Assembly: GCA_023269435.1 (NCBI GenBank)
Contig: JAHFTJ010000002.1
Coordinates: 1-45,686, forward strand
Length of the DNA: 45,686 nt
Source of the DNA: Chlamydiota bacterium
Lineage (GTDB): Bacteria > Chlamydiota > Chlamydiia > Chlamydiales > 2-12-FULL-49-11
Reading direction: 5' to 3'
The translations under genes were made by a program, and so were the position numbers. The notes beneath the pieces were generated by a model. The model saw nothing but the letters and a program-made list of their open reading frames with translations. It had not been told where the DNA came from and did not search any database. Shown one piece after another: positions 34,819-38,400 of this stretch (within the stretch, counting starts at the first letter, position 1; every line of letters starts with the position of its first letter).

Positions 34819-35640
34819 TTATCCTTGGTATTGCATGAAAAAAAATCTATCGAGGCCAGCTAAATCTTTTATGAATTCTTTTTTTGACCACATTTCACTT
34901 GAAAATATTTTTTCTATTGCGTTTTTTTGAGTTGAACCAATCTCTAAAAAGAGAAGGCCACCTTGTTTTAAGTAAAGAGGGACTTGTTTTTCTAATAATC
35001 TATAAAATAACAACCCATCATTACCACCAACTAATGCTAGCTTCGGTTCATAATTTTTTACACTATTTTCTAAAGTTATATATTCTTTTTCAGAAATATA
35101 CGGGGGGTTGCAAACTAAATAATCTATTTTTTTATTTTTTAATGGCTGAAGAAAATCTCCCGTCAAAATAGTTACATCAAGATTATTTATCTTCGCATTT
35201 TTTTCAGCAAGGGAGGTGCAAAATTCAGATATATCAGATAAGATAACATCTAATCTATTTAAATGTTTTTTTATAGCTAATCCAATACATCCAGTTCCAC
35301 AACAAAGATCTAACAGTAACTTTCCGCTAACGTTACCTATTTTATTTAATACATGTTCTACTAAGAATTCGCTTTCTAATCTAGGTATTAAAACGCCATT
35401 CATTAATTCAATTTTGCAACCATAAAATTCGACTTCTCCTAGAATTAGAGATAATGGCTCTCCCAACTCGCGACGAGATATTAATCTCTCTATAATATCT
35501 TGTTCAATTTTAGTGAAATGCAAATTTTCAAAAAATAATTCAGATCTTTTTTTACCAAGTGTATGAGCTACTATTTCCTCGAGATCACGTTGTGAGATTT
35601 TTTTGGTAGAAAAATGAAACGAGTGCACCAATAAGCTCAT
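34819..35640 (-). CDS. prmC: Release-factor glutamine N5-methyltransferase
   Basis: 273 aa with [11 protein letters not shown] (SAM site) and the VCNPPYI motif. Downstream of prfA. The annotated start overlaps prfA by 56 nt. Confidence 0.9.
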
Positions 35641-36649
35641 ACATATCTCCTTCCATAATCTTGTCTAAACTGTACAAAGTTAAATTAATCCTGTGATCTG
35701 TGACTCTATTTTGAGAAAAGTTATATGTTCTAATTCTTTCAGATCTATCGCCTGTCCCTACTTGAGTTGCACGAGTAAGTGCCATTTCAGCTTCTTTTTG
35801 CCTCTTTTGCTCTTCAGATATTTTAGCTTTTAACAACCTCATAGCTTTAGCGCGATTTTTTATTTGAGACCTCTCTTCTTGACAATGAACTATTATTCCT
35901 GTTGGTATATGAGTAATTCGAACAGCAGAATCTGTTGTATTTACGTGTTGACCGCCTGCACCTGACGAACGATACGTATCTATTCTTAGATCTTTTTCAT
36001 CAATATTTAATTCTTCTTCCTCTTTTGGTTCTAATAAAATAGCTATTGTAATCGCAGACGTATGCACCCTTCCTTGCGATTCAGTCAACGGAACTCGTTG
36101 AACGCGATGGGTCCCACTCTCATATTTCATAAACCTATAAACATTTTCGCCTGTAAGGACAAATTCGTAATCTTTATACCCTCCAATTTGAGATGAAACG
36201 GAAGACAACAATTCAAATGACCACCCATTTTTTTCAGCAAATGCACGATACATACGCACACAATCACCAACAAATATCGCAGCTTCATCACCGCCTGTCC
36301 CTGCTCTGATTTCTACAATAACATTTCTATTGTCATCAGGATCTGGGGGAACTAATAAAATTTCTACGTCTTTACGTAATTTATTACATTTAATTTCTAA
36401 TAAAGAAATCTCTTCCTCTAGAAGAGTTACAATTTCCGGATCATTTTCATGTTTTATAAATTTTTTATTTTCAAGTAATTGAAAACAAGCTTCTTTATAA
36501 GCTTCCCATTTGTGTCGCAAATCACACAAATATTTATGTTCACTTGTTAATTGGCGATACCGTTTTTTATCATTTATAGCATCGGGCGAGCTTAGTTCTA
36601 TTTCAAGATTTGCCAATTTTTCCAAAAGGGCCGTAACTTTATTATCCAC
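35585..36649 (-). CDS. prfA: Peptide chain release factor 1
   Basis: 354 aa with the [19 protein letters not shown] (GGQ) motif and a P-x-T-type tripeptide context (VPLTES). No frameshift site. Confidence 0.95.
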
Positions 36650-36674
36650 TTATTAAGCCTTTTAAAGAACAAAT

Positions 36675-36703
36675 ACCGGCAAACTTTTATAAGATTTGCC
36701 GGT
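36675..36703 (-). terminator. Hairpin terminator candidate between the micro-ORF pair and prfA
   Basis: The minus strand reads accggcaaa-tcttataaaag-tttgccggt, a 9-bp GC-containing stem followed by atttgttcttt. It starts 18 nt after the micro-ORF stop. Confidence 0.5.
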
Positions 36704-36720
36704 TAACTCGCTAAAAAAAA

Positions 36721-36852
36721 TTATTTCTTACCAGATTTTTTAGTATCAGTTTGTTTTTGAGTTGATTGTTTAGAAGCATTTTTTTTATCGTCTTGTTTTA
36801 CTTCTTTTGTTGATCCGCTTTTTTTATCGTGACCTTTTTTAGGTTTATCCAT
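36721..36852 (-). CDS. Unannotated micro-ORF, 43-aa lysine-rich protein (paralog 1)
   Basis: Hand translation: MDKPKKGHDKKSGSTKEVKQDDKKNASKQSTQKQTDTKKSGKK*. A GAGGA precedes the ATG. It is below the ORF-track length cutoff. Confidence 0.55.
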   Translation of the reverse strand: MDKPKKGHDKKSGSTKEVKQDDKKNASKQSTQKQTDTKKSGKK

Positions 36853-36865
36853 ATATCCTCGTATT

Positions 36866-37000
36866 TTATTTTTTTCCTGATTTTTTAGTATCAGTTTGTT
36901 TTTGAGATGGTTGTTTAGAAGCGTTTTTTTTATCGTCTTCTTTTTTTATTACTTTTGCAGGTTCGCTTTTTTTGTCGCAACCTTTTTTACATTTATCCAT
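36866..37000 (-). CDS. Unannotated micro-ORF, 44-aa lysine-rich protein (paralog 2)
   Basis: Hand translation: MDKCKKGCDKKSEPAKVIKKEDDKKNASKQPSQKQTDTKKSGKK*. A GAGGA lies 6 nt upstream of the ATG. An alternative ATG at 37006 adds MH. It starts 21 nt after the rpmE stop. Confidence 0.55.
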   Translation of the reverse strand: MDKCKKGCDKKSEPAKVIKKEDDKKNASKQPSQKQTDTKKSGKK

Positions 37001-37020
37001 ATGCATTCCTCTAATTAAAA

Positions 37021-37371
37021 CTATTTTTTAGTTGGTTTTTTAGATACAACTAGTTTCTTAACAACTTTTTTAGAAATTTCTTTACTATTATCTTCTTCTT
37101 CTTTTATTTCTTTTATAGGTTCCGCTTTTTTAAGATAACGTTTTTTAAATTTATCTATTCTACCTTCAGTATCTACAAATTTTTGATCTCCAGTATAAAA
37201 AGGATGAGAATCAGAAGATATTGAAACTTTAACACAAGGATATTTTTTCCCTTCAAATACAATTTCGTCAGCAGTATTTACAACGCTTCTACAAATAAAT
37301 TTTTTATCGGTACTCATATCTAAAAAAACAACCTCTCTATAATCGGGATGCTTATCTTTTTTCATTTTCAA
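37021..37371 (-). CDS. rpmE: 50S ribosomal protein L31, type B (no CxxC), with a Lys/Glu-rich C-terminal extension
   Basis: 116 aa with KKDKHPDY...[28 protein letters not shown]. The zinc-binding Cys pairs are absent. Confidence 0.9.
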
Positions 37372-37530: not shown

Positions 37531-38400
37531 ATGACATCAAAAATAGTTAAATATTTTATTGCAATTATAGTTTCATTGAGTCTTTTAAGTTGTATGCCTT
37601 TTGCTTTTGGGGTAATGCCGATGTTTGCCCTATCTTTGTGGGGGGTAAAACATTTTTTTATTTGGCAATTATTTTCACATGCTTTTTTATATCCAAGTAC
37701 ACCTGGCAGTGGAATACACATCTCATATCTAATAAATTTAGCCTTTAATATGTTTATTCTATGGAGGTTGGGAGTCTCTATTTCATACCATAAAGGTGTA
37801 AAACATTTTTTGAAACTATTTATCGGAAGTTCAATTACAGTTGGTATTGTAGTATTATCAATCTTTTATGCAACCGGATCTACAATGATATATGCTGGCA
37901 CCACACCAATAGTATTTACCCTTTTAATGGCTTCTATTATTTTGTATCCAGATATGGAAGTTATGTTATTTTTAACAATTCCAATAAAAGCTCGCTCATT
38001 AATATTAATAGCATTAGCGGCAACGCTGTTGATGGACATATCGAATGGGCAAATTTTATATTTTATAATTAACTTAGCTGCAATAACATATGGTTATATA
38101 TATGCAATATTAACATGGGGCTACAGAAGCTCATTCAAAACTTTATACGGTTTAGAGACATTTCTTTTTAAATTTTCTAATTTTTTTAGCAATAGAATGA
38201 GAATTAAATCAAATATAGATGTTTATGATAACTCTGGAGCAAAAATATACGATTTCAAAACTGGGAAAAAAATTTTAGATGATAACACTTTTTTAAATGC
38301 ATGTTTGTCTAAAATAGCTAAAGAAGGGAGAGCATCATTAACGTTCTCTGAAAAATTTAGACTTTGGCGTATTTCAAAAAGAATTAGCGAAAAGAAATAA
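37531..38400 (+). CDS. Rhomboid-family-like polytopic membrane protein; catalytic dyad not evident
   Basis: 289 aa. WQLFSHAFLY...LINLAFNMFILWRLG resembles the rhomboid TM2 WR..F.H...H..FNM motif. The GxSG position reads GTTP, and no His follows NG in the last core helix. Confidence 0.4.
   Translation: MTSKIVKYFIAIIVSLSLLSCMPFAFGVMPMFALSLWGVKHFFIWQLFSHAFLYPSTPGSGIHISYLINLAFNMFILWRLGVSISYHKGVKHFLKLFIGSSITVGIVVLSIFYATGSTMIYAGTTPIVFTLLMASIILYPDMEVMLFLTIPIKARSLILIALAATLLMDISNGQILYFIINLAAITYGYIYAILTWGYRSSFKTLYGLETFLFKFSNFFSNRMRIKSNIDVYDNSGAKIYDFKTGKKILDDNTFLNACLSKIAKEGRASLTFSEKFRLWRISKRISEKK

Follow-up and report, generated by a model that had tools for sequence, protein, structure and literature searches.

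Between rpmE and prfA in the genome of a Chlamydiota bacterium of the order Chlamydiales (lineage 2-12-FULL-49-11, assembly GCA_023269435.1) lie two short, lysine-rich open reading frames (ORFs), and the question raised by this locus is where such a pair came from and whether it amounts to more than debris. The window analysed here is the whole of a 45,686 nucleotide (nt) stretch of contig JAHFTJ010000002.1. Within it, the locus occupies the minus strand in the order rpmE, the rpmE-proximal ORF (micro2), the distal ORF (micro1), a hairpin, prfA and prmC. From comparison of the sequences we regard one part of the answer as established with high confidence, namely that micro1 and micro2 are tail-only tandem paralogues of bL31, the ribosomal protein encoded by rpmE. 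The evidence that the copies exceed debris is moderate, and leans towards constraint on their pattern of lysines.

The pair had been picked out in an earlier note, made from the letters of the window without database searches, and its description was recovered here. A 44-aa ORF (micro2, 36866..37000, minus strand, ATG at 37000) and a 43-aa ORF (micro1, 36721..36852, minus strand) stand in tandem between rpmE and prfA, both ending in TAA and both encoding peptides with a net charge of +9. The GAGGA said to precede each of them is present in the sequence as a Shine-Dalgarno-like (SD-like) motif at 37007..37011, 6 nt ahead of the ATG of micro2, and at 36856..36860, 3 nt ahead of the ATG of micro1 (both minus strand). 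A start codon, an upstream SD-like motif and a frame without internal stops were thus found in both ORFs, with a short spacing in micro1. A further ATG at 37006 directly abuts the GAGGA of micro2 and does not provide a usable start. The two peptides are 77% identical (about 75% by the earlier estimate), roughly one third of their residues are lysine (15/43 in micro1 and 16/44 in micro2), and they share both their last 12 residues, QKQTDTKKSGKK, and a 28-nt stretch of identical DNA (invariant alignment columns 120-147). Counted from the end of the rpmE stop, the ATG of micro2 begins 21 nt further on, and micro2 carries CKKGC where micro1 has PKKGH, again as first described. Tandem Repeats Finder returned the array with a period of 145, 1.9 copies, 84% matches and a score of 413. 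A DNA contig from a second sample (36692-37132) covers both ORFs with zero differences, and the tandem arrangement is therefore no artefact of one assembly. AlphaFold2 gave the peptides no secondary structure (pLDDT 69, pTM 0.15).

The parent gene, rpmE (37021..37365, minus strand, stop TAG), encodes a 50S ribosomal protein bL31 of type B with 114 residues. Its product matched Pfam family PF01197 over residues 1-77 (E 2.2e-25) and the NCBIfam model NF002462 ('type B L31') at 121.8 bits, against a cut-off of 86. Alignments with solved type-B L31 chains likewise cover residues 1-77/82 and stop at the conserved C-terminal motif, and a lysine-rich tail of 37 residues extends beyond the conserved end of the L31 domain. 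It had already been remarked that L31 has a lysine-rich tail similar to the two peptides. The likeness is real, but it is an in-register homology and thus more than a resemblance. Over their entire length, stop included, both micro-ORFs align with the final 45 codons and the stop of rpmE (Ile70 to Lys114; 37021..37158, minus strand), at 48% protein identity for micro2 and 40% for micro1 and with only 1-2 gaps, each of a single codon. In the DNA alignment the start ATG of the copies falls on an rpmE ATA (Ile70, 37156-37158), and their GAGGA falls on the GAAGG of the rpmE Glu-Gly codons, which lies just upstream of the duplicated segment (37163-37167, minus strand). Similarity to rpmE begins about 10-15 nt upstream of the micro-ORF ATG, and the 3′ flanks are also alike, the bases past the rpmE stop resembling those past the stop of micro1.

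As the sequences are of low complexity, shuffle tests were applied, in which global DNA alignment scores were compared with those of 2000 codon shuffles and 2000 base shuffles. Against the rpmE tail, micro2 scored z = 9.3-10.4 and micro1 z = 7.2-8.2, scores that 0/2000 codon and 0/2000 base shuffles reached; at the protein level z was 8.5 and 7.7, respectively. The similarity of micro1 to micro2 was greater still (z = 15.6-18.3, with 0/2000 shuffles as high). Moreover, a profile of the two ORFs was run in six frames over their own genome, an assembly of 1.05 Mb in 69 contigs that is 90% complete and represents the sole species of its genus in the genome collection. It matched in exactly three places, namely micro2, micro1 and the rpmE tail, the last being the third-best match (37024-37158, E 0.0025) over the full profile length of 1-44. 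Alignment, shuffles and own-genome profile all found common descent of the micro-ORFs with rpmE sequence.

The manner of duplication can be narrowed further. No remnant of the coding part for the L31 N-terminus was found between the copies, a result that favours partial duplication over the decay of a full gene copy. A whole-gene duplication followed by decay was rejected on this ground and because the similarity starts just before the ATG. The earlier note had named a remnant of a degraded longer gene as the finding that would undo its proposal; the present result touches on this, but the ORFs are intact, were copied in tandem from the 3′ end of rpmE, show some signs of constraint and are not what is left of a decayed longer gene. 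Neither of the periods, 158 and 148 nt, is divisible by three, and rpmE, micro2 and micro1 consequently lie in three different reading frames as three cistrons. The copies agree with each other against rpmE at 30 sites and differ from each other at 18.

A genome-wide habit of such duplications was also considered and rejected. The genome contains 19 tandem arrays with a period of at least 40, of which 17 have a period that is a multiple of 3 and were taken, from the period alone, as probable within-protein repeats; only the rpmE array and one array on another contig (C46) have a period that is not. The latter (C46:1207-1497) is a non-coding array with a period of 122, 2.4 copies and 91% matches, which is studded with the word AAATGTTGA, is overlapped by only short ORFs (about 30-42 aa) and looks like iterons or another binding-site array. 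Within rpmE itself, units of 15 nt and of 9 nt form tandem mini-repeats in the tail-coding part, in its KEI...KEI region (37076-37116, minus strand), as if the parent gene had itself undergone slippage there.

Conservation of the peptides across Chlamydiota, for which the earlier note had hoped, was absent from the genomes searched. The micro1 protein matched only the two copies in its own genome and gave 0 matches over 40 relatives. The two-sequence profile, searched against 400 genomes of the order, found only weak low-complexity matches outside its own genome (best E 0.004), and the four of these that were inspected are unrelated ORFs or frames. A word search of 5.8 billion proteins yielded no candidate, a HMMER search of 1.84 billion representatives gave 0 matches at E up to 0.001, and the PDB gave 0 matches. 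The best score in a search of the ESM Atlas was 0.78, under the lead threshold. The peptides had been called unannotated, and both are indeed absent from a collection of 15 billion proteins, but the ESM Atlas contains micro1 letter for letter. A scan of metagenomes with L31 for a closer relative found a best match of 45% identity and none closer. With no homologue in 400 genomes or in three large protein collections, the copies are lineage-specific.

The neighbourhood in relatives leads to the same place. In 28/29 relatives' loci rpmE is followed by prfA, the remaining locus ending at a contig edge. The rpmE-prfA spacer measures 371 nt here, whereas 19 loci of the same family have 0-88 nt and another 9, from other families, have 5-212 nt, and the longer spacers (loci L011, L024, L030 and L032) hold no analogous micro-ORFs. 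As the spacers of relatives are short and without a comparable ORF, the pair is a lineage-specific addition. The bL31 proteins of relatives range from 79 to 138 aa, with tails rich in K, A and E that differ widely in length and sequence, and throughout the group the bL31 tail is an appendage that evolves quickly and is prone to slippage. All of the relatives' bL31 proteins (loci L004-L032) share ...DKFKKRY ahead of the tail.

With the origin in hand, we asked how the copies have changed. The clearest pattern concerns lysine. In a neutral simulation, substitutions equal in number to those observed were applied together with the deletion of one codon, sequences were realigned and only open frames were kept, with G/C:A/T mutabilities of 1:1 to 3:1. 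Micro2 retains 14/16 of the tail lysines, compared with 6.8-8.2 in these simulations (P 0.0003-0.0013), and micro2 and micro1 have 15 lysines in common, compared with 11.0-12.4 expected (P 0.008-0.066). Lysine codons hold only 3/39 differences, and 1/18 of those between the copies (both site counts), and residues identical in all three sequences occupy 13/16 lysine columns as opposed to 3/29 other columns. The net charge of +9 is the same in the L31 tail, micro2 and micro1. Both indels within the coding sequence are whole codons, despite runs of A6-A8. Between micro1 and micro2, the Nei-Gojobori ratio of non-synonymous to synonymous substitution rates (dN/dS) is 0.38, from 6 synonymous and 12 non-synonymous changes, and falls to 0.10 in the C-terminal half (4 synonymous, 2 non-synonymous). 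Both frames were still open in 4-9% of neutral runs.

At the conserved end of the L31 domain, the motif DKF[KRN][KN][RK]Y is kept in 23/29 relatives' L31 proteins, its F and Y in 28/29, and it also occurs in the solved type-B chains. In the copies its D, K, K and K are retained. The aromatic residues have gone, and as their replacements differ between the copies (C or P instead of F, and C or H instead of Y), the sequences suggest that they were lost separately in each. If this is true, the separate losses would avoid competition of the peptides with bL31 for the bL31 site. Mimicry of the C-terminal motif is not proposed here, because the conserved aromatic and arginine residues are lost.

The earlier note had envisaged one transcript running from rpmE through both ORFs. 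This remains compatible with what was found, namely no promoter-like site in between and RNA contigs from two libraries. Promoter-like sites were found upstream of rpmE and none between rpmE and the ORFs, in a promoter scan that as a whole was not above shuffles (9 sites vs 6.6 ± 2.2). One metatranscriptome contig (36734-36972, depth 12) bridges the micro2-micro1 junction, and a second metatranscriptome library gave a contig at 36779-36924 (depth 8) that is collapsed across the repeat. The DNA libraries of the same samples, although 3-13 times larger, gave depths of 4.2 and 7.5, and by this comparison the contigs are taken as a sign of RNA rather than of carried-over DNA. RNA contigs also cover part of prfA, with depths similar to those found on the ORF pair. 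At position 36925 the RNA contig of run X3 has G where the DNA has T (plus strand), which would change Asn26 of micro2 to His. The reference base is present in the DNA contig from that sample, and a strain variant or an assembly error is possible.

Past the micro1 stop lies the hairpin that had been placed ahead of prfA, and its fold was reproduced. The predicted terminator- or attenuator-like structure (36664..36712, minus strand) has a core stem at 36675..36703 that folds at -18.9 kcal/mol (z = -3.09, with 1/200 shuffles folding as well), followed by a U-rich run. A simple terminator consensus scan did not call it, because, as we read the fold, the stem has a bulge. The hairpin and U-run sit about 8 nt past the micro1 stop and about 15-25 nt ahead of the start of prfA, and full termination seems unlikely because prfA begins so soon beyond it. 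Inspection by eye of the rpmE-prfA spacers of two relatives, L011 (88 nt) and L030 (146 nt), showed a G+C-rich inverted repeat in each, followed by a T-run in L030, so that a hairpin between rpmE and prfA may be recurrent in the group. Rfam gave no match on the region. Downstream, prfA (35585..36649, minus strand) encodes a 354-aa peptide chain release factor 1 from a GTG start (Pfam PCRF 2.7e-63, RF-1 1.5e-44), and prmC follows at 34819-35640 (minus strand). On the other side, divergent from rpmE, lies a 289-aa ORF resembling a membrane protein (37531-38400, plus strand), whose match to Rhomboid is borderline (22.7 bits against a cut-off of 22.6).

The explanation that we propose starts from the origin, which is concluded with high confidence. 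A unit of ~150 nt, comprising the last 45 codons of rpmE, the stop and a few bases of 3′ flank, was duplicated in tandem, and the first copy diverged before being duplicated again, leaving the period of 145-148 nt. With ATG in place of the ATA of Ile70 and GAGGA in place of GAAGG, each copy became a separate cistron. Both cistrons, which lie between rpmE and the hairpin before prfA, would be translated off the rpmE transcript and would yield disordered peptides of about 43 aa and charge +9, in which selection keeps the lysine pattern whilst other positions drift. That the copies are co-transcribed with rpmE, translated and selected for their lysine pattern is a proposition that we hold to be slightly on the probable side. 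More tentatively, the copies may be newborn genes in the full sense, in which the lysine tail of L31 has been spun off twice, is selected for its lysines and acts in trans, either on the ribosome or on some other RNA. That the free copies of the L31 tail bind ribosomal RNA, the ribosome or another nucleic acid electrostatically is a weaker proposition, which we hold to be less likely than not; the earlier note had likewise thought of basic peptides associated with the ribosome or the nucleoid.

Several observations weigh against this explanation, and many of them are what would be expected if the copies were neutral relics or proto-genes, that is, products of slipped-strand duplication of the 3′ end of rpmE that are carried on its transcript, perhaps translated at a low level, and decaying. 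This is a serious alternative, albeit one that we stop short of calling probable. The copies are confined to a single genome; no orthologue was found in any other genome searched. The peptides are of low complexity, and lysine codons are favoured anyway in a genome of 33% G+C. The contrast in dN/dS between the copies falls short of significance over the whole length (Fisher p = 0.09), the lower value for the C-terminal half (p = 0.01) comes from a split picked after the data were seen, and dN/dS for the rpmE tail versus either copy is about 1.25. Differences between the copies fall 8, 4 and 6 times at codon positions 1, 2 and 3, with no excess at the third. The counts in all of the constraint tests are small, and the lysine test assumes roughly even mutability, such that its signal shrinks if A runs mutate below the 1:1-3:1 range. 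The F, R and Y of the conserved L31 motif are replaced in both copies (the R by G), and 10/12 hydrophobic residues of the tail, counted by eye, are polar or small in both. Open frames at a neutral probability of 4-9% are not extreme, and very few changes (ATA to ATG, GAAGG to GAGGA) were required for a start and an SD-like motif. The GAGGA of micro1 is just 3 nt from its ATG, the two motifs are copies of each other and thus not independent, and SD-like motifs occur at 4.5% of random positions and ahead of only 156/759 long ORFs of this genome, which makes their presence weak evidence. The RNA support consists of assembled contigs only, without strand, ends, a reliable level or a silent-region control; no RNA contig covers rpmE itself, although the gap there and over 36496-36733 carries no weight. 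Lastly, the mini-repeats at 37076-37116 are in keeping with neutral relics, and the variation in L31 length amongst relatives marks the tail region as generally slippage-prone. Decay leaves other observations unaccounted for. Lysine positions are kept well beyond neutral expectation in both comparisons, only whole-codon indels occurred although the A6-A8 runs should favour frameshifts, and synonymous changes outnumber non-synonymous ones in the C-terminal half. In addition, ~290 nt of extra spacer have been kept in a compact genome with about 16% of its sequence outside ORFs of at least 150 aa. If the copies are nonetheless unselected, the locus serves as a caution that a 'conserved' pair of small ORFs with SD motifs can be mere copies of the tail of a neighbouring gene.

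The remaining alternatives fare worse. A role at the level of RNA, in which spacer and hairpin tune read-through from rpmE to prfA by attenuation and the ORFs merely load ribosomes before the hairpin, fits the position of the hairpin and U-run between the micro1 stop and the prfA start, the spacer hairpins seen by eye in L011 and L030 and the similar RNA depths over prfA and the ORFs. We consider it improbable, as the 3′ flank of micro1, including the distance to the hairpin, matches the flank past the rpmE stop, so that the stop-to-hairpin geometry was inherited and not made by the duplication. The spacers of 19/19 same-family relatives are just 0-88 nt long, no Rfam family matches, and the preservation of lysines at the codon level would go unexplained. 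Less credible again is a programmed -1 frameshift at the AAA AAA TAG of rpmE, which would give a bL31 with a doubled tail, possibly when RF1, encoded next door, is low. Relative to rpmE, micro2 is indeed in the -1 frame, which becomes open precisely at the final Lys codon of the A-run (37024-37036), and the stop is the RF1-specific TAG. However, no stimulatory structure was found beyond the slip site, micro2 possesses a GAGGA and an ATG of its own, micro1 would require a different (+1) shift, and 9 A-rich codons without a stop count for little. The rpmE stops in 29 relatives' loci are TAA in 20, TAG in 4 and TGA in 4, with one not reached at a contig end; there is therefore no conserved RF1-sensing stop, and such a role for the stop of rpmE was rejected. 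The frame of micro1, for its part, is open for 31 codons upstream of its own ATG, overlapping the end of micro2. Finally, composition alone (about 35% lysine, basic net charge) would speak for basic peptides of the nucleoid or ribosome that form a family of their own and have no relation to L31, for instance one like Hc1/Hc2 or a known small ribosomal protein. This we reject, since the in-register homology to the rpmE tail accounts fully for the sequence, no Pfam or NCBIfam family matched even at E up to 1-10, and the Hc1-family ORF of this genome is located elsewhere.

The explanation that we prefer, of copies of the L31 tail turned into small selected cistrons, can be set beside systems already known. 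Relative to bL31 itself, the ORFs lack the N-terminal L31 domain, align only to L31 residues 70-114 and do not match the C-terminal motif DKF[KRN][KN][RK]Y, and for neither ORF did Pfam or NCBIfam return a family (0 at E up to 1 and 10). By these comparisons they descend from bL31 and yet are not members of the bL31 family. With bL31 and its paralogues (type A and type B, e.g. YkgM) they share the lysine spacing and +9 charge of the type-B tail, but known paralogues are full-length with an N-terminal L31 domain, whereas the micro-ORFs are tail only and have no PF01197 match. Very small basic ribosomal proteins and ribosome-associated peptides include bL32-bL36, bS21, bS22, bTHX and Sra. The micro-ORFs are similar to these in size, basic charge and site beside a ribosomal protein gene, but have no Pfam or NCBIfam model, no relative of solved structure and nothing outside their own genome. 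The histone H1-like proteins Hc1 and Hc2 are associated with chlamydiae and are likewise lysine-rich and basic; the micro-ORFs, however, have no PF07432 match, and their ancestry lies in rpmE. The Hc1-family match of the same genome (PF07432, 48.7 bits, above cut-off) is to a 71-aa open frame on another contig (C22:4637-4777, plus strand), which by this match is the genome's own lysine-rich nucleoid-type protein. This ORF, like the gene order rpmE-prfA-prmC, is compatible with an assignment to Chlamydiota. In Escherichia coli, the C-terminal eight residues of bL31 contribute to subunit association and are situated close to bS14 in the 30S subunit (PMC9966373), and on that account the parent segment would be a ribosome-contact region.

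A full-text literature search found nothing relevant on tandem duplication of rpmE with small ORFs or on chlamydial L31 extensions, and no description of a ribosomal-protein tail becoming an independent cistron by partial tandem duplication, with an internal Ile converted to a start and a Glu-Gly to a Shine-Dalgarno. Nor did a term search within 'The Cryptic Bacterial Microproteome' (PMC11188072) return a passage on small ORFs arising from a duplicated neighbouring gene. If the peptides are made and selected, the locus documents from beginning to end one way in which a bacterium can gain a micro-protein gene: the 3′ part of an essential gene is duplicated in tandem, an internal ATA turns into ATG, internal coding bases turn into a ribosome-binding site, and a second duplication follows. 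It would then also raise the question of whether the variable lysine tails of many bL31 proteins in this group have a function, and one that can be supplied in trans. The micro-ORFs also resemble the lineage-restricted small ORFs and proto-genes of bacteria, which, in three reports (PMC12315717, PMC12542359, PMC13753837), are alike in their shortness, their disorder, their restriction to a single lineage and their weak or ambiguous selection. The difference from the proto-genes treated in those reports lies in the source, which here can be traced to an essential ribosomal protein gene that was duplicated in part, rather than to non-coding DNA or horizontal transfer, and in the start codon and SD-like motif, which here were recruited from internal codons.

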